This document shows positions 5,411 to 30,673 of a stretch of DNA of 32,000 bases, piece after piece. Both the position numbers and the translations under genes were made by a program. The stretch covers positions 593,581-625,580 of the forward strand of contig NC_000909.1 of NCBI RefSeq assembly GCF_000091665.1, in the 5' to 3' direction. How positions within the stretch are numbered: position 1 is the first letter of the stretch; every line of letters begins with the position of its first letter. This stretch comes from Methanocaldococcus jannaschii DSM 2661. GTDB taxonomy: Archaea > AGJL01 > Methanococci > Methanococcales > Methanocaldococcaceae. Under the pieces are notes generated by a model. It ran no database searches. It saw nothing but the letters and a program-made list of their open reading frames with translations, and was not told the origin of the DNA.

Positions 5411-5673
5411 ATCCCTCCCCCACCAGATTTATTTCTTTACTTTATAACTTAGGTATGTTAATAGTTAAGTTTTTATATCTCTTGTATGTTTATTCATTAT
5501 TCATAGACTCGCATGGCCTGACCCGTGTCTCTTTTACAAAACAAAACTTAAAGTAAAAATTATAGAATTTATGAAGTATTTGGAATAAACTAACCAAAAG
5601 GCATGGAAATAATAAAATAATAAGAAAGAAATCCAGTTAAAAAATATTAAAAACAATTATTACAGGTGTTAAT

Positions 5674-8344: not shown

Positions 8345-8378
8345 TATTTCACCAAAATAAGGAAAATATTACAGAAGA

Positions 8379-8445
8379 TTAACAGACCCTTGGTATTGGG
8401 TCTCCAATCGGCATATCGACAATTCTCCTACCAACAATATGTCTC
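8379..8445 (-). repeat. Displaced duplicate of the last 19 codons plus stop of hypE (non-translated copy)
   Basis: 8379-8438 aligns without gaps to 8501-8560 at 50/60 identity. It translates to the identical peptide IVGRRIVDMPIGDPIPRVC*. Homology seems to continue about 6 nt further (gtctc) across a 1-nt indel. Confidence 0.9.
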
Positions 8446-8500
8446 GCATGAAACTTTTAGAAAAGTTTCATCAAAACTTTTAAAAATTGCATTATGAATA
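8446..8500 (-). repeat. Family-A palindromic element (short version) between the two hypE 3' end copies
   Basis: Contains the hairpin atgaaactttt-ag-aaaagtttcat (8448-8471) and the conserved core gaaacttttag.aaaagtttcatcaaaac. The same core occurs at 23552-23580 and 25450-25478, and inverted at 25549-25577. Confidence 0.85.
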
Positions 8501-9508
8501 TTAACAAACTCTTGGTATCGGATCGCCAATAGGCATATCCACTATCCTTCTACCAACAATCGTCTCTATTATAACTCCCTTATGTTCTTTTGTAGCATAG
8601 CCAATGATTTCAGCATTCTTTCCTAATGGATGCTCCCTTAAAATCTCTAAGCATCTTTCAGCATCTTCCTTTTTAACTGCCATAACTACCTTTCCTTCAT
8701 TTGCTATAGTTAAAGGGTCTAAGCCAAGAATATCACAAATTGATTGAACTTCATCACTTATTGGGATTTTATCCTCAAATATAGTTATGCCAATATTACT
8801 CTTTTCAGCCATCTCATTTAACGCATCTGCCAAACCTCCTCTTGTAGGGTCTTTCATGGCATTTATTTGAATGCCCTCTTCTAAAACCCTCTCAATTAAT
8901 TTATTTATTGGAGCTACATCTGATTTTATGTTTGTTTCAAAATCAAATCCCTCCCTTGATAATAAAATAGCTAATCCATGCTCTCCTATATTTCCAGAAA
9001 CAATTATTGCATCTCCCTCTTGAACATTACAATCCCTTATTGCCTTTCCCCTATCAACAATCCCTATTCCAGCAGTTGAGATTATGATATCATCAACTCC
9101 ATCAGATACCTTTGTATCTCCTGTTATTATTGCTACTTCAGCCTCTTTAGAAGTTTCGTTTATTGATTTAACTATTTTCTCCAAATCTTCTAAGTTAAAA
9201 CCTTCTGGAATTATTAAAGATAGAGATAGAGCTAATGGCTTAGCTCCCATAACTGCTAAATCATTTACAGTTCCACTAACAGCCAATCTTCCAATATCTC
9301 CACCTGGGAAGAATATTGGTTTAACTGTGTGTCCATCAACAGTAAAAACAATCTCCTTATCACCTATTGGGATAGTTGCTGAATCATCCAAGCTTTCTAA
9401 GCCAATTCCTCCATTAACTGATGTTATCTCCAAATTTTTCAATATTACATCTTTTATAAGCTCCTGCATTACCTTTCCTCCAGCTCCATGCATTCGTGTG
9501 ATTTTCAT
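8501..9508 (-). CDS. hypE: [NiFe]-hydrogenase maturation protein HypE
   Basis: AIR-synthase-like/PurM fold sequence (HGAGGK.., GDTKV, DPTRGG) and the diagnostic C-terminal PRVC. Confidence 0.95.
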   Translation of the reverse strand: MKITRMHGAGGKVMQELIKDVILKNLEITSVNGGIGLESLDDSATIPIGDKEIVFTVDGHTVKPIFFPGGDIGRLAVSGTVNDLAVMGAKPLALSLSLIIPEGFNLEDLEKIVKSINETSKEAEVAIITGDTKVSDGVDDIIISTAGIGIVDRGKAIRDCNVQEGDAIIVSGNIGEHGLAILLSREGFDFETNIKSDVAPINKLIERVLEEGIQINAMKDPTRGGLADALNEMAEKSNIGITIFEDKIPISDEVQSICDILGLDPLTIANEGKVVMAVKKEDAERCLEILREHPLGKNAEIIGYATKEHKGVIIETIVGRRIVDMPIGDPIPRVC

Positions 9509-22901: not shown

Positions 22902-22930
22902 ATTTCCCCTCCCAGTTTAATAAAGTAAAG

Positions 22931-23042
22931 TATAGTTTCTTGCAAAACATTTTAGAATAAATAATACATTTATGAACACCTTCCAAAAGGAAGGTGTTCA
23001 AACCTTCCTTACGAACTTCAGTAACTTTTGCAAGAAACTATA
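22931..23042. repeat. Family-B palindromic element (MITE-like): perfect 17-bp terminal inverted repeats plus a central GC-rich hairpin
   Basis: TIRs are tatagtttcttgcaaaa (22931-22947) and ttttgcaagaaactata (23026-23042). Central 12-bp stem tgaacaccttcc-aaaa-ggaaggtgttca (22973-23000). A second copy lies at 26378-26484. Confidence 0.85.
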
Positions 23043-23077
23043 AAAGTCCAAATTGGACAGAATTTTTTATTTTCACA

Positions 23078-23118: not shown

Positions 23119-23532
23119 ATGAATGTTAAGATAATAGTTGAGTTTATAAAAAAGTTCGCAGAAGAAAATAACTGTAAAAAAATAGCTGAGATTGGAATTG
23201 GATTTAAATTTGATGTTGCAAGAGAATTAAGTAAATATTTCGATTTGATAGCCATAGATATTAATGAAAAAGCTATTGAAAAAGCTAAATTGTTGGGATT
23301 AAATGCTTATAAAGATGATTTATTTAATCCAAATATAAGTTTATATAAAAATATTGATTTAATATATTCCATAAGACCTCCAAGAGATTTACAGCCGTAT
23401 ATTTTAGATTTATCAAAAAAAGTTAATGCAAATTTAATTATAAGACCTCTTTTGAATGAGATGCCAATAAAAGAGCTAAAACTAAAAAACTACAAAGGAG
23501 AAGTGTTTTATATAAAAGAAAAACAAATTTAA
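23119..23532 (+). CDS. UPF0146-family protein (methyltransferase-like Rossmann fold)
   Basis: IAEIGIGFKFDVA..IAIDIN..IYSIRPP resembles the conserved archaeal UPF0146 family. I prefer the start at 23119 (MNVKII) over 23089. Confidence 0.6.
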   Translation: MNVKIIVEFIKKFAEENNCKKIAEIGIGFKFDVARELSKYFDLIAIDINEKAIEKAKLLGLNAYKDDLFNPNISLYKNIDLIYSIRPPRDLQPYILDLSKKVNANLIIRPLLNEMPIKELKLKNYKGEVFYIKEKQI

Positions 23533-23551
23533 GCTTTTAATTTCTTCCTTC
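23529..23551 (-). repeat. Displaced duplicate of the last 6 codons plus stop of rpl39e
   Basis: ttaagcttttaatttcttccttc versus 23627-23649 ttaagccttcaatttcttccttc (21/23 identical). Both encode RKKLKA*. Both mismatches are at wobble positions. Confidence 0.8.
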
Positions 23552-23626
23552 GAAACTTTTAGTAAAAGTTTCATCAAAACTCGTCCATTAAGTTAGGGCT
23601 TTCAGCCCTAATTAATGTCCATTCAC
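23552..23626 (-). repeat. Family-A modular hairpin element (two modules) between the rpl39e 3' end copies
   Basis: Module 1 is gaaacttttagtaaaagtttcatcaaaac (23552-23580). Module 2 is the bulged hairpin ccattaagttagggct-ttc-agccctaattaatg. Module 2 recurs inverted at 29669-29706. Confidence 0.85.
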
Positions 23627-23785
23627 TTAAGCCTTCAATTTCTTCCTTCTCCAGTATCTCATTTTTGGGTGGAATCTAACTCTCCCTCTTGTTTTAACAA
23701 TGACAAACAATGGAACTCTTCTATTCTGCTTTAATGCTTTAGCCAATCTTACCTTCTTTCCTAATGGCTTGTTGCTTCCCATCAT
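23627..23785 (-). CDS. rpl39e: 50S ribosomal protein L39e (52 aa; absent from the ORF track because it is under 60 aa)
   Basis: My reverse-complement translation gives [58 protein letters not shown] Shine-Dalgarno site immediately upstream. The sequence is characteristic of L39e. Confidence 0.9.
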
Positions 23786-23790
23786 CTCAC

Positions 23791-24393
23791 CTAAATCTCC
23801 TTTTTTAATCCAACAACCCTTGTTTGTTTATGTTCAGGGAAATATTTCTCTGGACTTTCTCCTCTCTCCTTCAATATATGTCTAATCTCTGCCTCGTAGT
23901 CAGAGCTCAACTTAGTTCCACTTTTTATCTCTTCTAATATAAAAAATTCACTTGCTAAATGCCTCAAAGTTTTATAACCAAAACCCATTAATGGGGTTAT
24001 ATATTGGATATTTTTCCTCATCTCTAAGCTCTGAATCTCTGAATAGCTAAGCTTTGGGACTCTATCATCTCTTCTTGTCCCATCCGCTAAAATGCTATAT
24101 TCATCAGCCAAAATTTCTAAGACAGTTTTATGAACATATTGTATTGCAGGGCCAGGATATTTATGTTCAATAATCATATCAGCAGCTTTTTCAACAATTT
24201 TTCTATCGAGAGTTATAACTTTATGCTTAAATCCTAAAATTTTAGCAGTTTCTTCAGCTAATTTATAAGAGGGAATAACACCAAAATTTATAGTTATTAG
24301 ATGAGGATTGTAACCAAGTTTTTTTAATATCACTGCAGAGAGGGAGCTATCTTTCCCTCCACTAAAGAGAACATGAACATCCATAAGTTTCAC
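23791..24393 (-). CDS. PP-loop (adenine-nucleotide alpha-hydrolase superfamily) ATPase
   Basis: N-terminal SGGKDSS PP-loop. Its start overlaps the upstream stop (ATGA). It is embedded in a ribosomal-protein cluster. Confidence 0.65.
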
Positions 24394-24719
24394 TTTCTAA
24401 CAATTTTAATTTCTCTCTTTCTCTTTGTCAATGCACTTATTCTCTCGAGTAAAGCTTTAAAGTCCTCATCACTCAATGGGATTGGTAATCTTCCAAGTTG
24501 AGCTAATTGGATTAGTTGGACTTCAACAGCTTCAGCAAATTCTGGTCTTGCCAATCTTATTCTCTCCAATCTCTCTCTTGCTTCAGGTGTTAATATTTTC
24601 CTTAATAAAGCTCTTTTTTGCATCTCCGCCTCTAATAATGCCTCTTCTTGCTGTTGTTGTTCAGCAAGCTTTTTTTGCAATTCAAGAAGCTTTTTTCTTT
24701 TAATTTCTTCAACATCCAT
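24390..24719 (-). CDS. PDCD5/TFAR19-family dsDNA-binding protein
   Basis: The charged helical N-terminus and ILTPEARERLERIRLARPEFA..VE..LIQLAQ are typical of the archaeal PDCD5-like 'DNA-binding protein' that commonly follows rps19e. Confidence 0.8.
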   Translation of the reverse strand: MDVEEIKRKKLLELQKKLAEQQQQEEALLEAEMQKRALLRKILTPEARERLERIRLARPEFAEAVEVQLIQLAQLGRLPIPLSDEDFKALLERISALTKRKREIKIVRK

Positions 24720-24730
24720 TTAGCATCCCC

Positions 24731-25177
24731 TTAGTATTTAGCAAGAGCAGGGATTTCATTAATTATTTCATCCCTAACCTCTTTAGCAATGTTGTCTAAG
24801 AAACTTCTTCCTTTTGGAGTAACAACTCTTCCCTCAGGTGTCTTTTCAACTAAACCTAATTTTTCTAATTCTTGTAAAGCTTTTCTAATGATGTTTCCAC
24901 TACCTTTGTAGAAGTGTTCTGGTTCATGACCTCTGTTTTTTCTTCCTCCGTAAGCAGTTCTTAATCTTGAAACACCTACTGGGCCGTAAATATAGATTTT
25001 TCTTAAGATTGATGCACACCTTATATACCACCAGTCATCTTGGTCTGGTCTTCTCTCTCTGCTAACTCCTGTCTTAACAAAATCTACCCATTCTGGAACT
25101 CCTATATTCATCTCTTTTAATTTCTCAGCTGTCTTCTGAATTAACTTATCAGCTGGAACATCATAGACAGTTACCAT
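24731..25177 (-). CDS. rps19e: 30S ribosomal protein S19e
   Basis: [20 protein letters not shown]..[19 protein letters not shown]..GGRKNRG is conserved S19e sequence. GAGGTG Shine-Dalgarno site upstream. Confidence 0.95.
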
Positions 25178-25425
25178 TTTTGCACCTCTCTTAATTATTT
25201 TTTAATTAATTTATTTTGATTTTCTTTCTAATCTATTTATTTTGTGTTTAAGATTATGAGTTTTTGTAGCATAAAATCTATTTAAGGATATGTAGTTTAA
25301 ACCAATAAAACAAGCTTAGTATTAATTTGATTAGGTTATATTTATATCTTATTATTATCGATAGATACATCTTTAGGTTTAAAATTTAACTCTATAAAAA
25401 AGAGAAGAGAGTTAAATATAAAAAA

Positions 25426-25449
25426 TGGAGCCGGGGGTGAAATTTAAAC
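25426..25449 (-). repeat. Displaced duplicate of the 3' 24 nt of tRNA-Cys (CCA, discriminator, acceptor 3' strand, part of the T arm)
   Basis: tggagccgggggtgaaatttaaac versus 25580-25603 tggagccgggggtgggatttgaac (21/24 identical; the three differences are G-to-A in the displaced copy). Confidence 0.85.
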
Positions 25450-25579
25450 GAAACTTTTAGTAAAAGTTTCATCAAAACGGATGCATTGCTTCCTAACGGA
25501 AGCAATGCCTCTTAATTTACACCTCCGAGCGTAAGCGAGGAGGTGTCAGATTTTGATGAAACTTTCTTAAAGTTTCAAA
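25450..25579 (-). repeat. Family-A element, full-length 130-nt version: two hairpin-forming terminal inverted repeats flanking two GC-rich hairpins
   Basis: Left TIR gaaacttttagtaaaagtttcatcaaaac (25450-25478). Right TIR gattttgatgaaactttcttaaagtttc (25549-25576/7). Internal hairpins are gcattgcttcc-taac-ggaagcaatgc and acacctcc-(12 nt)-ggaggtgt. Confidence 0.9.
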
Positions 25580-25654
25580 TGGAGCCGGGGGTGGGATTTG
25601 AACCCACGTAAGGCGGATCTGCAGTCCGCTGCCTAGCCCCTAGACTACCCCGGC
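25580..25654 (-). tRNA. tRNA-Cys (anticodon GCA), CCA encoded
   Basis: Manual cloverleaf: acceptor GCCGGGG/CCCCGGC, D stem GTCT/AGGC, anticodon stem GCGGA/TCCGC with loop CTGCAGA, variable loop CTTAC, T stem GTGGG/CCCAC with loop TTCAAAT, discriminator U73 (a tRNA-Cys identity element). 75 nt. Confidence 0.93.
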
Positions 25655-25683
25655 TCTTTCAAAACCTATGAGTTGCATACATA

Positions 25684-25707
25684 AACTATATAGAGGTAGT
25701 ATATAAA
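25684..25707 (-). promoter_or_regulatory. Candidate tRNA-Cys promoter (TATA-like elements)
   Basis: The minus strand reads tttatata (25707-25700) and ctatatag (about 25694-25687), 30-50 nt upstream of tRNA position 1. I cannot say which one is used. Confidence 0.3.
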
Positions 25708-25717
25708 TTTTATGGTT

Positions 25718-26335
25718 TTAACTTTTATAGTATTTGCTCCACAATATTCTTAAACATTCAATAACCATCCTTTTAGCAATCTCATCTAATGTATATGGTG
25801 TTATTGGCTCAAAATCTCTGATAAATTTCTCAGTTCCTACAACTATATGCCCCTCTTCATCTAAATTTAAAAATTTGGCTGGGCCTTTTGCATATTTGGC
25901 ATCACAAACCTTTATTTTTTCTTCTATACCAAATACCCCATTAGTTCCTATTGTTTTAATTCCTCTCTCTTTACAGTAGTTTATGATTGCCTTTGTTGTT
26001 GGGATTGTATCTCCACCAGCTATACATATCACTGCTACATCTCCCTTAATTAAATGAAGATTATCTTTAGTTATATTTTCTCTAAATGCCTCAACTCTAT
26101 TTCCAAAAAATCTCTTTATAAAATCTACTTTGTATTCCCCAACCTTTCCCCCTAATCTTCTATGGACAATATCATTTTCTTCTATTTTGGCATTATCAAA
26201 AACATAAACTTTTTCTACCCCACCTCTATGAACTTCTAATAAATCAAAAGCTACTCTAACACCCAATCTTCCGCATCCAATTATTGAAACTTCTCCTTTT
26301 GGCTTTAATTTTCTCTCCATCTCTTCAACGTTCAT
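25718..26335 (-). CDS. Rossmann-fold protein, ThiF/MoeB (E1-like) family-like
   Basis: VSIIGCGRLGVRVAFDL..VYVFDNAKIEENDIVHRRL resembles the E1-like GxGxxG / DxDxVExSNLxR pattern. I moved the start to 26335 (MNVEEMERK) because the track's first 36 codons lie inside the family-B repeat. Confidence 0.4.
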   Translation of the reverse strand: MNVEEMERKLKPKGEVSIIGCGRLGVRVAFDLLEVHRGGVEKVYVFDNAKIEENDIVHRRLGGKVGEYKVDFIKRFFGNRVEAFRENITKDNLHLIKGDVAVICIAGGDTIPTTKAIINYCKERGIKTIGTNGVFGIEEKIKVCDAKYAKGPAKFLNLDEEGHIVVGTEKFIRDFEPITPYTLDEIAKRMVIECLRILWSKYYKS

Positions 26336-26377
26336 AAATATCCCATCCAAACAGAACTTTTTTAGTAAGAAAGTATA

Positions 26378-26484
26378 ATAGTTTTTTGCAAAGTTATTAA
26401 AATTTATTAAGGAACATTGAACGCCTTCAAAGAAGGCGTTCATTATTATGCTTTACTAATATAAGACATTTTGCAAAAAACTAT
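26378..26484. repeat. Family-B palindromic element, second copy
   Basis: Perfect 15-bp TIRs atagttttttgcaaa (26378-26392) and tttgcaaaaaactat (26470-26484). Central hairpin tgaacgccttc-aaa-gaaggcgttca (26418-26442). Confidence 0.85.
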
Positions 26485-26542
26485 TTATTTAAGAAAATTT
26501 TAATGTTGTTCTATATATAAAAACTTATCAGGGGGGATTATT

Positions 26543-27787
26543 TTGATTTATGTTACTTTTACACCTTATGGAGCTTTTGGAGTTAAAGATAATAAAGAAG
26601 TTAGCGGATTGGAAGATATAGAGTATAAAAAATTGTTTAATGAGGAAGAAATTCCAGATATAATGTTTAAATTAAAAACTCAGCCAAATAAAATAGCAGA
26701 TGAGTTAAAAGAGGAATGGGGAGATGAGATTAAATTAGAAACACTTAGCACTGAACCATTCAATATAGGGGAGTTTTTAAGAAACAACTTATTTAAAGTT
26801 GGAAAAGAATTGGGATACTTCAACAACTATGATGAATTTAGAAAGAAGATGCATTATTGGAGCACTGAGCTAACAAAGAAAGTTATAAAGAGCTATGCTC
26901 AACAAAAGGATAAAATCATTATTCAAGTTGCAGAGGCAATATCTGATTTGGATAAAACTCTAAACTTGTTATCTGAGAGATTGAGAGAGTGGTATTCCCT
27001 CTACTTCCCAGAGTTAGACCACTTAGTTAATAAACATGAAGTTTATGCTAACCTAATAACAAAATTAGGAAAAAGGAAAAACTTTACCAAGAGTCAGCTA
27101 AAAAAAATCCTTCCTTCAAAATTAGCTGGGAAAATTGCTGAAGCCGCAAAAAATTCAATGGGAGGAGAATTGGAAGATTATGATTTAGATGTTATTGTTA
27201 AATTTGCTGAGGAAATAAATCACCTATATGAAAAAAGGAAGGAGCTATATAACTATTTAGAAAAATTGATGAACGAAGAAGCTCCAAATATTACAAAACT
27301 TGCTGGTGTTTCCTTAGGAGCGAGATTAATAGGTTTAGCTGGAGGATTGGAGAAATTGGCTAAGATGCCTGCTTCAACAATACAAGTTTTAGGTGCTGAG
27401 AAGGCTTTATTTGCCCATTTAAGGATGGGTGTGGAGCCTCCAAAACATGGTATAATATATAATCACCCTTTAATTCAAGGTTCTCCACACTGGCAAAGAG
27501 GGAAAATAGCAAGAGCTTTAGCATGTAAATTGGCTATAGCTGCAAGAGCTGATTATGTTGGGGATTATATTGCAGATGAACTTTTAGAAAAGTTAAATAA
27601 GAGAGTTGAAGAGATTAGAAGAAAGTATCCAAAACCACCAAAGAAAAAGAAGAAAGAGAAACCTAAAGCAAAGAAAAAAGAAAAGAAAGGTAAGAAAGAA
27701 AAATCAAAGAAAAAAAAGGATAAGAAAAAAGATAAAAAAGGTAAAAAAGAAAGGAAAGTTATAGGAAAAACAAAGAGTAGGAAATAA
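26543..27787 (+). CDS. nop5: Nop5 (Nop56/58 homologue), C/D box sRNP core protein, with a long Lys-rich C-terminal tail
   Basis: NOP domain (GVSLGARLIGLAGGLEKLAKMPASTIQVLGAEKALF, PKHGIIYNHP, GKIARALACKLAIAARAD). TTG start preceded by GGGGGG. The last ~65 aa are a KKE/KKD low-complexity region. Confidence 0.95.
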   Translation: MIYVTFTPYGAFGVKDNKEVSGLEDIEYKKLFNEEEIPDIMFKLKTQPNKIADELKEEWGDEIKLETLSTEPFNIGEFLRNNLFKVGKELGYFNNYDEFRKKMHYWSTELTKKVIKSYAQQKDKIIIQVAEAISDLDKTLNLLSERLREWYSLYFPELDHLVNKHEVYANLITKLGKRKNFTKSQLKKILPSKLAGKIAEAAKNSMGGELEDYDLDVIVKFAEEINHLYEKRKELYNYLEKLMNEEAPNITKLAGVSLGARLIGLAGGLEKLAKMPASTIQVLGAEKALFAHLRMGVEPPKHGIIYNHPLIQGSPHWQRGKIARALACKLAIAARADYVGDYIADELLEKLNKRVEEIRRKYPKPPKKKKKEKPKAKKKEKKGKKEKSKKKKDKKKDKKGKKERKVIGKTKSRK

Positions 27788-27892
27788 TTACTTTTTACGA
27801 TTTTTATTTTTTTCACGATAATGGACATACAGAACATACAATAATGCATCTATAACTACAATAGCAGTTGATATAATCCACATTTTATCCAT
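27788..27892 (-). CDS. Candidate 34-aa single-pass membrane micro-protein
   Basis: MDKMWIISTAIVVIDALLYVLYVHYREKNKNRKK*, a hydrophobic helix plus a basic tail. GGGAGA Shine-Dalgarno site between it and the upstream stop at 27902. Below the ORF-track cutoff. Confidence 0.3.
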   Translation of the reverse strand: MDKMWIISTAIVVIDALLYVLYVHYREKNKNRKK

Positions 27893-27901
27893 ATTCTCCC
27901 A

Positions 27902-28228
27902 TTATTTTTGTCTTAGATGCTTTTCTATTATACCTTCAAGCTCTTCATCATATCTTAGGTAAATGTCTCTTACAAATATCAATCTAATTATTAATGGAAA
28001 TTTGCTAATTAATCTTATATATTTGTCTTCTATTTTATAGCCTTTAAATTCATCCCATTTATAAAAAGAAAATCCACATTCAATTCCATTCTCATAAATA
28101 TTAATTTTAACATTAATTAAAGAGTCAAAAATATCAAAAAGTGCGAGTTCTTCAAATGCTAAAACTTTCATAATAAAATTTGGAATAAATAAAAAGCTTT
28201 TTCCAAATCTAAATTCCCATAAGTTCAT
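27902..28228 (-). CDS. Small hypothetical protein, paralogue of the C-terminal domain of the 182-aa neighbour
   Basis: ..YKWDEFKGYKIEDKYIRL..IYLRYDEELEGIIEKHL aligns by eye with ..ISWKNIENVKKDDGFIVL..IYLKYDEEIENIIKNQI of 28349-28897. Possibly a bacterial-PH-like domain. Confidence 0.5.
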   Translation of the reverse strand: MNLWEFRFGKSFLFIPNFIMKVLAFEELALFDIFDSLINVKINIYENGIECGFSFYKWDEFKGYKIEDKYIRLISKFPLIIRLIFVRDIYLRYDEELEGIIEKHLRQK

Positions 28229-28352
28229 TTAAGCTTTTTAGTAATTTTCCTCTATTAATTGATAAAAATTTTATAAAATCCCAAAATCCAAAGACAATCA
28301 ATCCCATGAGATAAATTAAAGTTATTGCTAAAATACATAACAAAAAATTCAT
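28209..28352 (-). CDS. Candidate 47-aa membrane micro-protein, translationally coupled to the upstream gene
   Basis: MNFLLCILAITLIYLMGLIVFGFWDFIKFLSINRGKLLKSLNELMGI*. The ATG overlaps the upstream TGA (ATGA at 28349-28352). Its 3' end overlaps the next ORF by 20 nt. Confidence 0.3.
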   Translation of the reverse strand: MNFLLCILAITLIYLMGLIVFGFWDFIKFLSINRGKLLKSLNELMGI

Positions 28353-28897
28353 GCTTTATCCCTAAATTTTTCTATCTGGTTTTTAATGATGTTTTCAATT
28401 TCTTCATCATATTTTAAATAAATTCTTTGAAGTAAGTAAAGTTTTCGTCCTAATATTTTCTTTTTCTTTCCGAACAATACGATAAACCCATCATCTTTTT
28501 TAACATTCTCAATATTTTTCCAACTTATAAATTTATTACTATAATAAATTCCATCATCACACAAATAGACAGAAATTTCTTTGTTAAATGCTTTCCATAT
28601 AATAATCATTGATATAATAATAAGAATTTCTGCAATTATTGAAGTTATTGAAACTGGACAATTATAAACCACATACAATAAAATATTAAAGGAAATTAAA
28701 GCAATAATCATAAATCCAAACAATATAGGCATTGCTTTCTTATCAAACTCTGCCTTTTTACCTTCAATCAAATTAAGATAGTGCATTTTAACTCTTTTAA
28801 AAATCCTACTTTTAATTTTTGGTTGCATATTTGTTATTTTATAGGAGATAAAGCTATTAATTAAAAATGCAATTGCAATAAATAGTATAGACTCCAC
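28349..28897 (-). CDS. Hypothetical membrane protein (about 3 TM helices plus a soluble C-terminal domain)
   Basis: Hydrophobic segments at residues about 1-20, 55-80 and 83-103. The C-terminal domain is paralogous to 27902-28228. Confidence 0.55.
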   Translation of the reverse strand: MESILFIAIAFLINSFISYKITNMQPKIKSRIFKRVKMHYLNLIEGKKAEFDKKAMPILFGFMIIALISFNILLYVVYNCPVSITSIIAEILIIISMIIIWKAFNKEISVYLCDDGIYYSNKFISWKNIENVKKDDGFIVLFGKKKKILGRKLYLLQRIYLKYDEEIENIIKNQIEKFRDKA

Positions 28898-28965
28898 AAT
28901 ACCACCATATATGCATATAAGTTATTATTTATATTGCATTAGATTTATTATTTTTTGGTGATAAA

Positions 28966-29658
28966 ATGGAAGACATTAAAATCAAAGAGATTTTTGAAAA
29001 CATCTATGAAGTTGATTTAGGAGATGGCTTAAAAAGAATAGCAACAAAATCTATTGTTAAGGGAAAAAAAGTATATGATGAAAAAATAATAAAAATTGGA
29101 GATGAAGAGTATAGAATTTGGAATCCAAATAAAAGTAAGTTGGCAGCTGCAATAATTAAAGGTTTAAAGGTTATGCCAATAAAAAGAGATTCAAAAATCT
29201 TATACTTAGGAGCTTCAGCTGGAACTACACCATCTCACGTTGCAGATATTGCTGATAAAGGCATTGTATATGCCATAGAGTATGCACCAAGGATTATGAG
29301 AGAGCTTTTAGATGCATGTGCTGAGAGGGAAAACATAATCCCAATTTTAGGAGATGCAAATAAACCTCAAGAATATGCAAATATTGTTGAAAAGGTAGAT
29401 GTTATCTATGAGGATGTTGCTCAGCCAAATCAAGCGGAGATTTTAATTAAAAATGCTAAGTGGTTTTTAAAGAAAGGCGGTTATGGAATGATAGCAATAA
29501 AGGCAAGGAGTATAGATGTTACAAAAGACCCAAAAGAGATTTTTAAAGAACAAAAAGAAATTTTAGAGGCAGGAGGTTTTAAAATAGTTGATGAGGTAGA
29601 TATTGAGCCGTTTGAAAAAGACCACGTCATGTTTGTAGGTATTTGGGAGGGAAAATAA
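28966..29658 (+). CDS. flpA: Fibrillarin-like rRNA/tRNA 2'-O-methyltransferase
   Basis: YRIWNPNKSKLAAAI, ILYLGASAGTTPSHVADI, VYAIEYAP, DVAQPNQAEI and IAIKARSIDVT are canonical fibrillarin. GGTGA Shine-Dalgarno site upstream. Confidence 0.97.
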   Translation: MEDIKIKEIFENIYEVDLGDGLKRIATKSIVKGKKVYDEKIIKIGDEEYRIWNPNKSKLAAAIIKGLKVMPIKRDSKILYLGASAGTTPSHVADIADKGIVYAIEYAPRIMRELLDACAERENIIPILGDANKPQEYANIVEKVDVIYEDVAQPNQAEILIKNAKWFLKKGGYGMIAIKARSIDVTKDPKEIFKEQKEILEAGGFKIVDEVDIEPFEKDHVMFVGIWEGK

Positions 29659-29742
29659 CATAAAATTGGACATTAATTGGGGCTAAAAGCCCCAACTTAA
29701 TGGACGGGAGGTATCCCAATAGGAGGTCTCCTCCTATGGTTG
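29659..29742 (+). repeat. Modular hairpin element between the two fibrillarin 3' end copies
   Basis: Hairpin 1 is cattaattggggct-aaa-agccccaacttaatg (the same module as at 23584-23620, inverted). Hairpin 2 is ataggagg-tct-cctcctat. Confidence 0.8.
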
Positions 29743-29786
29743 GAGAAAGACCACATATTATGTTTGTTGGAGTTTGGGAAGGATAA
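29743..29786 (+). repeat. Displaced, partly decayed duplicate of the last ~14 codons plus stop of fibrillarin
   Basis: gagaaagaccacatattatgtttgttggagtttgggaaggataa versus 29614-29658 gaaaaagaccacgtcatgtttgtaggtatttgggagggaaaataa. The terminal part reads MFVGVWEG* versus MFVGIWEGK*. There is a 2-nt insertion and a 3-nt deletion. Confidence 0.8.
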
Positions 29787-29840
29787 AGCTTTTTTAGATA
29801 AATTTAAAATTATTTTTTAGTAAAAATGTTTGGTGGGAAT

Positions 29841-30419
29841 ATGAGGATTTTTGAAGTAATGAGGGAAACAAAAGAGACTAATATTTACCTAAAAATAAAC
29901 ATTGATGGAACTGGAAAATATAAAATAGACACGGGTATTCCATTTTTTGACCATTTGTTGGCATCTTTTGCTAAACATGGATGTTTTGATTTGATTGTTA
30001 AGGCAAGAGGGGATTTGGAGATAGATGACCACCACACTGTTGAAGATGTTGGAATTTGCTTAGGTTTAGCCTTAAATCAGATTGAAAAGAGGAATATTTT
30101 TAGATTCGGCTGGGCTATAATTCCAATGGACGATGCAAGGGCTACTGTAGCGATAGATTTAAGTGGAAGGAGTTATTGTGTAGGAAATTATGAGCCAAAA
30201 AGAGAGTTTGTTGGAGACTTAGCAACTGAGAATATAAATCACTTTTTTGAGTCAGTTGCAAGTTATGGAATGCTAAATATCCATTATGAAGTTATTGGAA
30301 AGAATGAGCATCACAAGGCAGAGGCTTTGTTTAAGGCTTTTGGAGTAGCTTTAGATTTAGCTACAAAAATTGATGAAAGGAAGGGAGTTATAAGCACTAA
30401 GGGAGAGGTTAAGCTATAA
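29841..30419 (+). CDS. hisB: Imidazoleglycerol-phosphate dehydratase
   Basis: [25 protein letters not shown] and [14 protein letters not shown] are IGPD motifs. The ATG at 29841 follows GGTGGG, so I prefer it to the track start at 29826. Confidence 0.93.
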
Positions 30420-30542: not shown

Positions 30543-30574
30543 GATGAAAATAGATTAGATATACAAAAACTTCG

Positions 30575-30673
30575 TTTCCATCCTCCAAGAGGTCTGATTT
30601 TAATCTCGGAGACATATTCGACCTATGGAGAGCAGACACTAACTTTCCATCCTCCAAGAGGTCTGATTTTAAT
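30575..30673 (-). CRISPR. Mini CRISPR array: two identical 30-nt repeats and one 39-nt spacer
   Basis: Repeats at 30575-30604 and 30644-30673. Their reverse complement is attaaaatcagacctcttggaggatggaaa, which resembles the Methanocaldococcus ATTAAAATCAGACC....GGAATGGAAA repeat type. Spacer 30605-30643 is ctcggagacatattcgacctatggagagcagacactaac. Orientation is inferred from the ATGGAAA(G/C) 3' handle. Confidence 0.85.

Follow-up and report, generated by a model that had tools for sequence, protein, structure and literature searches.

Why does the fibrillarin gene flpA of Methanocaldococcus jannaschii DSM 2661 carry its own 3′ end twice, and what is the DNA that lies between the two copies? The locus belongs to a stretch of 32,000 nucleotides (nt) of the chromosome (NC_000909.1, positions 593,581 to 625,580 of the forward strand), which is called here the window and to whose positions all coordinates refer unless a contig is named. 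In the window, the stop codon of flpA is followed by a hairpin-forming insert and then by a second copy of the gene end. The reading that we favor, in which our confidence stands midway between doubt and conviction, is that 29610–29738 (about 130 nt) is an inserted cassette made of a replacement for the last 15 flpA codons plus stop, followed by a protein-less mosaic of hairpins, and that recombination within the repeats accounts for its gain, loss, and exchange. The same layout is seen again at other gene and tRNA ends, here and in distant archaea, and this recurrence points to an undescribed route by which very small mobile elements get into gene ends while leaving the gene unbroken.

The duplication of the flpA end around a hairpin insert had been proposed in a preliminary description of this DNA, and alignment and folding agree on it. 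The best local alignment of the two copies (GTTTGAAAAAGACCAC--GTCATGTTTGTAGGTATTTGGGAGGGAAAA against GTTGGAGAAAGACCACATATTATGTTTGTTGGAGTTTGGGAAGGATAA) scores 22.2, whereas dinucleotide shuffles (n = 500) score 11.1 ± 1.5 with a maximum of 18.8; the distal segment therefore does better than the shuffled controls against which that description had proposed to measure it. The synonymous changes and the Ile/Val change listed there can be found in the sequence, as can the loss of the Lys codon and the 2-nt “at” insertion, and both copies close with TAA (29656–29658 and 29784–29786). As for the extent of the duplicate, its presence stands but its limits do not: the similarity starts at 29739, about 4 nt before the 29743 given earlier, so that the insert measures about 80 nt and not 84. 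The downstream copy is the displaced one, as had been suggested. Once its 2-nt insertion is removed, it reads EKDHIMFVGVWEG and stop, a match in every residue to the end of M. fervens FlpA, and the native flpA–hisB spacer of the window (the hisB start being 29826 or 29841) has its homologue in the M. bathoardescens spacer ATCTTTTTTAAGATAAATTTAAATTATTTTTTAGTAAAAACGTCTGGTGGGAAT, which makes the distal copy contiguous with native downstream DNA. Taken together, these two observations identify the distal copy as the displaced ancestral end. In fact, the usual FlpA ending in the clade is that of a 229-amino-acid (aa) protein, the one encoded by the distal copy, and M. jannaschii FlpA, which ends in ..DHVMFVGIWEGK, is the sole 230-aa protein among the 11 retrieved full-length members of its 90% cluster. 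The ending ..HIMFVGVWEG, for which a check of other species had been proposed, has been found in M. fervens and in three metagenome proteins (P0124, P0129, and P0134). FlpA stays whole but carries the cassette ending ..V....IWEGK instead of the ..I....VWEG of the clade (Val for Ile and an extra Lys). The distal codons are now untranslated and their decay has begun, the decay-like changes being the 2-nt insertion and perhaps TTT>TTG, with no others. The proximal copy, on the other hand, departs from the inferred ancestor of M. jannaschii and M. bathoardescens by about 5 substitutions and the extra codon, where the rate of the gene body predicts about 1. At the nucleotide level, it lies closest to the proximal copy of a vent-metagenome contig, L152 (4 differences, against 7 for M. 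bathoardescens). On only about 45 nt, the sequence suggests that the proximal copy would be the newcomer.

Three stems, and not the two hairpins described earlier, make up the fold of the insert (−37.1 kcal/mol, z = −5.0): a long stem at 29670–29703, a small one (GGGA/TCCC), and ATAGGAGG-TCT-CCTCCTAT. It encodes no open reading frame (ORF), and its ends, CATAAAATTGGAC.. and ..CCTCCTATGG, are not mutual inverted copies, which leaves it with no terminal inverted repeats. The long stem is hairpin module A, whose second copy in the window has 3 mismatches where the chance expectation is 0; further copies occur in FS406-22, in M. bathoardescens, and in strain 16A. Across the copies, five pairs of the module A stem are altered on both sides and none is broken, and the sequence ahead of the module varies between all the sites that bear it. 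The remainder of the insert is module D, whose CCTATGG end abuts the distal flpA copy. Copies of module D are found in L111, L130, L151, L152, and L190, and the changes in its inner stems are compensatory as well, two pairs having changed on both sides. The compensatory changes in both modules argue that the hairpin as such is under selection. No Rfam covariance model matches any of the inserts (whole window at the gathering threshold; 23300–30000 at E ≤ 5). No bacterial-type terminator or promoter has been found at the flpA insert, and a terminator scan of 29500–29900 came back empty; a GC-rich hairpin followed by a T run, the mark of an intrinsic terminator, is not present, and the lone T6 run comes after the distal copy. 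Since no T run of at least 5 lies within the insert, transcription probably continues to that native T6 run, which by its sequence is likely to be the archaeal termination signal. The transcript would then pass through the hairpins and the old terminus, and the cassette would act as a structured 3′ untranslated region (UTR).

Three other gene ends in the window, those of hypE, rpl39e, and tRNA-Cys, have this structure (Table 1), so that the earlier count of four termini within 32 kb holds. Their supposed independence does not, the four sites being built from common hairpin modules. Within the window, there are two copies of module A and four of module B, and relatives have more. The modules are combined as A+D at flpA, A+B at rpl39e, inverted B, two hairpins, and B at the tRNA gene, E+D in L151, and A+E+B in L122. 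The repeats that flank the inserts measure 48 nt at flpA, about 70 at hypE, 23 at rpl39e, 27 at the tRNA gene, 55 in L151, and 10 in L155. The hypE insert bears the module-B hairpin GAAACTTTTAGAAAAGTTTC at 8450–8469, and the tRNA-Cys insert has inverted module-B ends around two inner hairpins, its distal copy spanning from the T loop to 3 nt beyond the tRNA end.

Table 1. Positions in the window of the flpA locus and of the three other gene ends with the same layout
Feature	Position	Strand	Remarks
flpA (fibrillarin)	28966–29658	+	230 aa, ending ..EKDHVMFVGIWEGK and stop; ORF, Pfam Fibrillarin and homologs
flpA proximal (in-use) terminus copy	29610–29658	+	last 15 codons and stop; alignment
Linker CATAAAATT	29659–29667	+	from stop codon to first hairpin; sequence
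Hairpin module A: GGACATTAATTGGGGCTAAAAGCCCCAACTTAATGGAC	29668–29705	+	recurs at 23583–23620 (−)
Hairpin module D: GGGAGGTATCC + CCAATAGGAGGTCTCCTCCTATGG	29706–29739	+	small stem and ATAGGAGG/CCTCCTAT; fold
flpA distal (displaced, ancestral) terminus copy	29739–29786	+	reads EKDH(+2 nt)IMFVGVWEG and stop
Native flpA–hisB spacer	29787–29840	+	hisB next; T6 run 29791–29796; aligned to M. bathoardescens L130
hypE layout	8374–8566	−	proximal 8496–8566, insert 8446–8495, distal 8374–8445
rpl39e layout	23529–23649	−	gene 23627–23782; proximal 23627–23649, insert 23552–23626, distal 23529–23551
tRNA-Cys layout and gene	25423–25654	−	gene 25580–25654, repeats and insert 25423–25603; proximal 3′ end 25577–25603, insert 25450–25576, distal 25423–25449

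The hypE site tells most about which copy has changed. Its two copies show 10 differences in 20 codons, every one of them synonymous. When FS406-22 is taken as reference, 5 of 60 sites are changed in the distal copy, in line with the gene body (6.9%), and 10 of 60, all synonymous, in the proximal copy, the one in use; about four of the proximal states (AGA AGG for AGG AGA, GTG, and GGC) appear in no other sequence examined. The preliminary description had taken hypE as the pattern of a decaying distal copy, but the copy that is aberrant with respect to the relatives is the upstream one. Translation of the distal hypE copy from an ATG in the insert has been discarded, for this ATG is out of frame, and so has introgression of the whole flank, given that the genes flanking the hypE and flpA inserts show no step in divergence.

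The codon-like differences between copies had been explained as the decay of a duplicate formed in place, and this idea has been tested over all the coding cases. In six coding pairs, the copies differ from each other by 37.5 synonymous and 9.5 nonsynonymous changes, where random mutation would make about 25% of the changes synonymous. In a simulation of 3000 runs, duplication happens in situ, the copy in use accepts synonymous changes only, and no constraint is placed on the distal copy. For seven coding pairs taken together, 11.5 nonsynonymous differences are observed against 36.3 expected, and the lowest run gave 25; flpA alone gives P = 0.024. Simple duplication followed by decay is thus rejected, and the deficit of nonsynonymous changes indicates that both copies descend from working gene ends. 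If a cassette was inserted, the differences look like those between alleles because the cassette brings its own working terminus, and the outlying proximal copy of hypE is accounted for in the same way. This result bears on two rival explanations. One of them supposes that a non-autonomous palindromic element, similar to a miniature inverted-repeat transposable element (MITE) or to repetitive extragenic palindromic (REP) sequences, entered the flpA–hisB spacer and duplicated 10–70 nt of its target, that the copies then drifted in place, and that only those insertions in which the duplicate reaches past the stop survive, the gene being kept whole. We regard it as rather unlikely, given that drift in place is what the simulation rejects and that the distal hypE copy has neither a nonsynonymous change nor an indel, whereas the copy in use carries about 9 synonymous changes. 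The other does without any mobile element and invokes a replication accident, in which a stalled fork switches to a distant hairpin repeat and returns upstream, leaving a tandem duplication with templated filler between its halves. The short microhomology (GAGAC to either side of the hypE junction), the duplicate–filler–duplicate layout, the variable repeat lengths, and the mosaic or nested modules, such as the extra hairpins in module B of FS406-22, fit template switching. It predicts, however, that the copies start out identical and so fails on their synonymous-only divergence, and it leaves unexplained the sharply conserved module boundaries as well as two further regularities described below, the junction common to two lineages and the constant orientation of module B. 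We consider template switching improbable. Two other sources of change have been discarded. Repeat-induced C>T mutation fits the distal copies of the tRNA gene and of L190 alone, not those of hypE or flpA. A diversity-generating retroelement is not compatible with the changes in hypE and flpA, which span all four bases in both directions and are not adenine-specific, and no ORF similar to a reverse transcriptase adjoins them.

Comparison with relatives shows where the sites are filled and where they are empty. The flpA gene body is 95.4% identical to that of the window in M. bathoardescens (L130), 92.6% in FS406-22 (L007), and 89.4% in M. fervens (L128), and in all three flpA has a single terminus, no insert, and a spacer of 42–55 nt. 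The rpl39e insert is present in M. bathoardescens and in FS406-22, with extra hairpins nested in module B in the latter, and was not seen in M. fervens; the tRNA-Cys insert is present in M. bathoardescens, absent from FS406-22, and not seen in M. fervens; and the hypE insert is absent from FS406-22 and M. fervens, the two relatives compared for it. The rpl39e repeats of FS406-22 are perfect over 24 nt, and the tRNA-Cys distal copy of M. bathoardescens is more decayed, through C>T changes. At the rpl39e end of FS406-22 (L007:3925–4090), about 46 nt with two more hairpins are nested within the module-B stem, so that single modules seem to insert into one another. At all the loci examined, the duplicate is present exactly where the insert is present; the situation that would have spoken against the duplication, a duplicate without its insert in other genomes, is thus not encountered. 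The distribution gives no support to the idea that flpA is at a later stage than hypE, the flpA insert being found only in M. jannaschii and one other lineage. No polymorphism between filled and empty sites has been detected within the strain: the comparable contigs with identical FlpA or HypE match the window across both inserts, and L189 departs from it only further downstream of the insert regions.

That other lineage came from a metagenome scan with FlpA, in which the vent contigs L151 and L152 were found to bear an insert at the same junction. Their flpA and hisB genes are 1.1% apart from each other and about 8% from those of M. jannaschii, and the junction (..CCTATGG|TTTGAAAAAGACC.., that is, CCTATGG|TTTGA) is identical to that of M. 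jannaschii. Module D is common to the three inserts, and the left hairpin of L151 and L152 is module E (GAGGCACTGCCGAGC.TTTAGCGAGGCAGTGCATCC) in place of A. The two repeats of L151 are identical over 55 nt, which take in 12 nt beyond the stop, and those of L152 differ at 9 of 55. When the two contigs are compared, a single one of the 66 nt of the insert has changed, as against 5 of 55 in the proximal repeat and 6 of 55 in the distal one, which means that the repeats turn over about 10 times faster than the flanking genes. The L151 repeat is moreover a mosaic of both L152 copies, so that recombination or conversion, and not point mutation, is what makes the repeats evolve. A cassette exchanged by recombination accounts both for this fast turnover and for a junction held in common by lineages 8% apart while closer relatives are empty. 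A MITE- or REP-like insertion would need either strict site specificity or many precise losses to produce the same pattern. Hairpins also follow flpA in other contigs. In L155:2190–2290 (87% FlpA identity), the flpA stop is followed by a hairpin element that has only a 10-nt repeat, TTTTTAGTTG, on its flanks; in L150, a module-E hairpin stands directly after flpA, at the contig end; and L149 and L153 have apparent remnants of module E (TAAGAGGCATT.. and TAAGAGATATTGCC.., respectively). The hypE end has also been hit a second time. In L190, from a vent-metagenome Methanocaldococcus, the hypE stop is immediately followed by an insert of independent origin (1709–1850). The module that comes first in it is the flpA module D, inverted and nearly identical (without any difference in the 24-nt core CCAATAGG..CCTATGG); more hairpins come next, and then a distal copy of 29 nt that has plainly decayed, with Pro>Leu and Cys>Arg replacements and changes that are mostly C>T.

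A third rival explanation starts from the behavior of larger elements. Archaeal and bacterial integrases that target tRNA genes, and the Escherichia coli prophages e14 and 21 in icd, belong to elements that restore the 3′ end of the gene they enter. The insert could then be the scar of a larger plasmid or virus that carried an integrase, integrated site-specifically at a gene 3′ end of which it brought along a version, and was afterwards emptied by deletion of its interior. An insert set between direct repeats of the target 3′ end, together with a diverged upstream copy that restores the gene, is the signature of such integrations; in both cases, the supplied copy is functional, with mostly synonymous differences, and the tRNA repeats start in the T loop and end just past the 3′ end. 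In addition, Methanococcales harbor archaeal integrases of the pTN3/pT26-2 type, and that of the archaeal plasmid pTN3 reportedly catalyses a recombination whose products are those of homologous recombination (PMC8371274). Integrative elements, however, are kilobases long, encode an integrase, and use one target each, whereas the present inserts have 50–130 nt, are non-coding, and use modules common to many targets, four of them in 32 kb. No integrase fragment or coding remnant lies between the repeats at any of the more than 12 sites, the inserts differ by whole modules and not by ragged deletions, and there is no match to the insert in the plasmid collection or to module A in viral contigs. 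We consider a scar of this kind improbable.

Module B shows how far the hairpins extend beyond these loci. Its hairpin (TTTTGATGAAACTTTT-loop-AAAAGTTTC, with a conserved TTT ahead) has been scanned for in one genome per species, and the cases given here are among the matches listed. It spreads well past Methanocaldococcus, with matches in L008–L127 (e.g., L013, L018, L023, L033, L042, L061, L066, L076, L110, L112, and L120): it occurs in many DPANN archaea, in Methanobacteriaceae, and in Altiarchaeota, and in dozens of copies, within multi-hairpin units, in termite-gut bacteria of the Defluviitaleaceae. Within Methanocaldococcus, further loci have repeats far above shuffles (L009, at tRNA-Val, L052, L055, L057, and L122). 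Contigs of DPANN archaea and Methanobacteriaceae have direct repeats of tRNA 3′ ends flanking module B (L063, L101, L102, L103, and L036), which are perfect in L063 and L101; examples that adjoin tRNA-Ala are TTCGAATCTCACCCGCTGCG twice and AATCCCCCAGCGTCCA twice, and in L101 the repeats stand at 5497–5512 and again past the hairpin at 5636. The layout is that of M. jannaschii, and the repeats around module B in DPANN archaea are likewise well above shuffles. In the DPANN, the place of module B is often the anticodon-loop (intron) position of tRNA-like sequences, as judged by inspection, on which this reading as introns depends because ARAGORN without its intron mode calls no intron-bearing tRNAs. 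In eight of eight cases, with the gene in sense, the GTTTC end of module B points toward the distal copy, 0–25 nt away from it. No autonomous transposon with the same ends appeared among the matches listed in the module-B scans. Neither did the plasmid collection match the tRNA insert, and a module D pattern run on viral contigs was set aside as too loose, its matches (at least 120) being chance-like. Two observations concern module B in other contexts. In L087 (minus strand, about 700–800 of the reverse complement), it alternates in a tandem array with an identical unit of about 45 nt that contains the tRNA-end-like sequence CTACGGGGCTGTATTTGCTTCTATAGCCCGTCAGAG. In giant-virus metagenome contigs (GC 21–23%), a MITE-like unit of about 120 nt (L140:6815–6934, L141:11815–11934, and L147:4655–4774) has inverted module-B hairpins as its two ends (GAAACTTTAAAAAAGTTTCATCAAAA ... 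TTTGATGAAACTTTTTTAAAGTTTC) and lies between (TA)n stretches.

A MITE- or REP-like insertion has the following in its favor: repeats that are perfect at L151, at the rpl39e end of FS406-22, and in L063 and L101, that vary from 10 to 70 nt, and that can be a 5′ leader or plain spacer; a hypE end hit twice with different boundaries; inverted terminal hairpins in the tRNA-Cys insert; and the giant-virus unit with the same terminal hairpin. The inserts are, like MITEs, small, non-autonomous, present in many copies, and flanked by direct repeats. The target duplications of MITEs have 2–10 bp, with a fixed length in each family, whereas the present repeats are long, variable, and often codon-aware, and the flpA insert is devoid of terminal inverted repeats. 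We know of no transposase that produces target duplications this long or variable.

How the cassette might move can be proposed as follows. A unit of terminus plus hairpins would enter by recombination inside the homologous terminus, either by a single crossover of a small excised circle or by short-patch recombination of a linear piece. With such an entry, the native terminus necessarily ends up downstream, as the second of two direct repeats. A recombinase, for instance an integrase of the pTN3 type, might help. The unit would leave by recombination between the two direct repeats, and the same recombination would allow it to pass between diverged lineages. Several facts weigh against this proposal. 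No transposase, integrase or other recombinase, circle, or donor sequence has been found, and no protein search was aimed at RAYT. A circle of 120–130 bp is physically awkward. Perfect repeats (L151, 55 nt; FS406-22 rpl39e, 24 nt; L063; L101) would be the expected product of a recent target duplication, and a cassette would need an identical donor or gene conversion to produce them. As hypE has been hit twice with different boundaries (M. jannaschii and L190), first events recur, and the cassette does not explain them; nor does it predict the constant orientation of module B beside the distal copy in eight of eight cases. The repeat of L055 is a 5′ leader and that of L155 is 10 nt of spacer, so that the repeat need not be a gene end. 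Finally, the polarity at flpA depends on about 45 nt, over which M. bathoardescens is about as far from the proximal copy as from the distal one (7 differences against 7). An insertion that duplicates a long, variable stretch of its target may be the route by which a site is first colonised.

Among known systems, the closest in description are the palindromic repetitive elements MJRE1-3 of M. jannaschii (Suyama, Lathe & Bork, 2005, FEBS Lett 579:5281, cited in PMC2229807). The hairpin modules are probably MJRE repeats, judging by description: both are found in the same organism and are short and palindromic, and the insert has the hairpins expected of them. The MJRE repeats are mostly extragenic and present in many copies. 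The set reportedly comprises 141 elements, three of them inside genes, and is not known to include flanking duplicated termini, codon-preserving divergence, or relatives outside the species. REP sequences and bacterial interspersed mosaic elements (BIMEs) of enterobacteria are mobilised by RAYT transposases and transcribed as structured 3′ UTRs. Like the present inserts, they are mosaics of short imperfect palindromes in variable order, located after stop codons and encoding no protein; to our knowledge, their insertions are not flanked by duplicated gene ends. Readings of the TGATGA..GAAAC motif as a hammerhead, a C/D box, or a K-turn have been rejected by inspection, as there is no GAAA after stem II, the D box is misplaced, and the sheared G-A pairs have no partner strand. 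No description of this layout has been found in the full-text literature on the motif, on MJRE, and on Methanocaldococcus MITEs, a search to whose scope Suyama et al. (2005) did not belong.

A bolder proposal, which we hold to be doubtful, is that the inserts make up a distinct class of miniature mobile elements, a “terminus-swap cassette” that encodes nothing and spreads between archaeal genomes with a recoded gene end as its homing address, and whose hairpin unit may move across domains and may be a source of archaeal tRNA introns. The hairpin that these inserts have in common with sequences interrupting DPANN tRNAs makes the origin of those introns a testable matter. If the cassette is real, an element of about 100 nt without genes invades essential genes and tRNAs harmlessly, persists there, and crosses species by the homology of its end alone. 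The inserts would then be natural markers of recombination between Methanocaldococcus lineages and a hidden source of C-terminal protein variation, for example in M. jannaschii fibrillarin, a model protein of structural biology. For annotation, small unannotated repeats past stop codons can bear pseudo-termini.

Other repeated sequences in the window deserve a brief mention. A hairpin at 2251–2297, with arms TTTTAGCATC and GATGCTAAAA, lies in the 60-nt spacer of two co-oriented minus-strand genes and belongs to none of the modules A, B, D, and E. At 22930–23045, a promoter-side spacer holds a palindromic element whose 17-nt inverted arms (TATAGTTTCTTGCAAAA and TTTTGCAAGAAACTATA) enclose a perfect 12-bp hairpin (TGAACACCTTCC-AAAA-GGAAGGTGTTCA). 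The 3′ end of the Nop5 gene (26543–27787) contains a lysine-rich (AAG/AAA) repeat with a 9-nt period at 27641–27776, which is the usual KKE/D tail and has no relation to the hairpin inserts. Finally, just past hisB, 30574–30673 is a minimal array of two CRISPR-DR39 repeats and one spacer.

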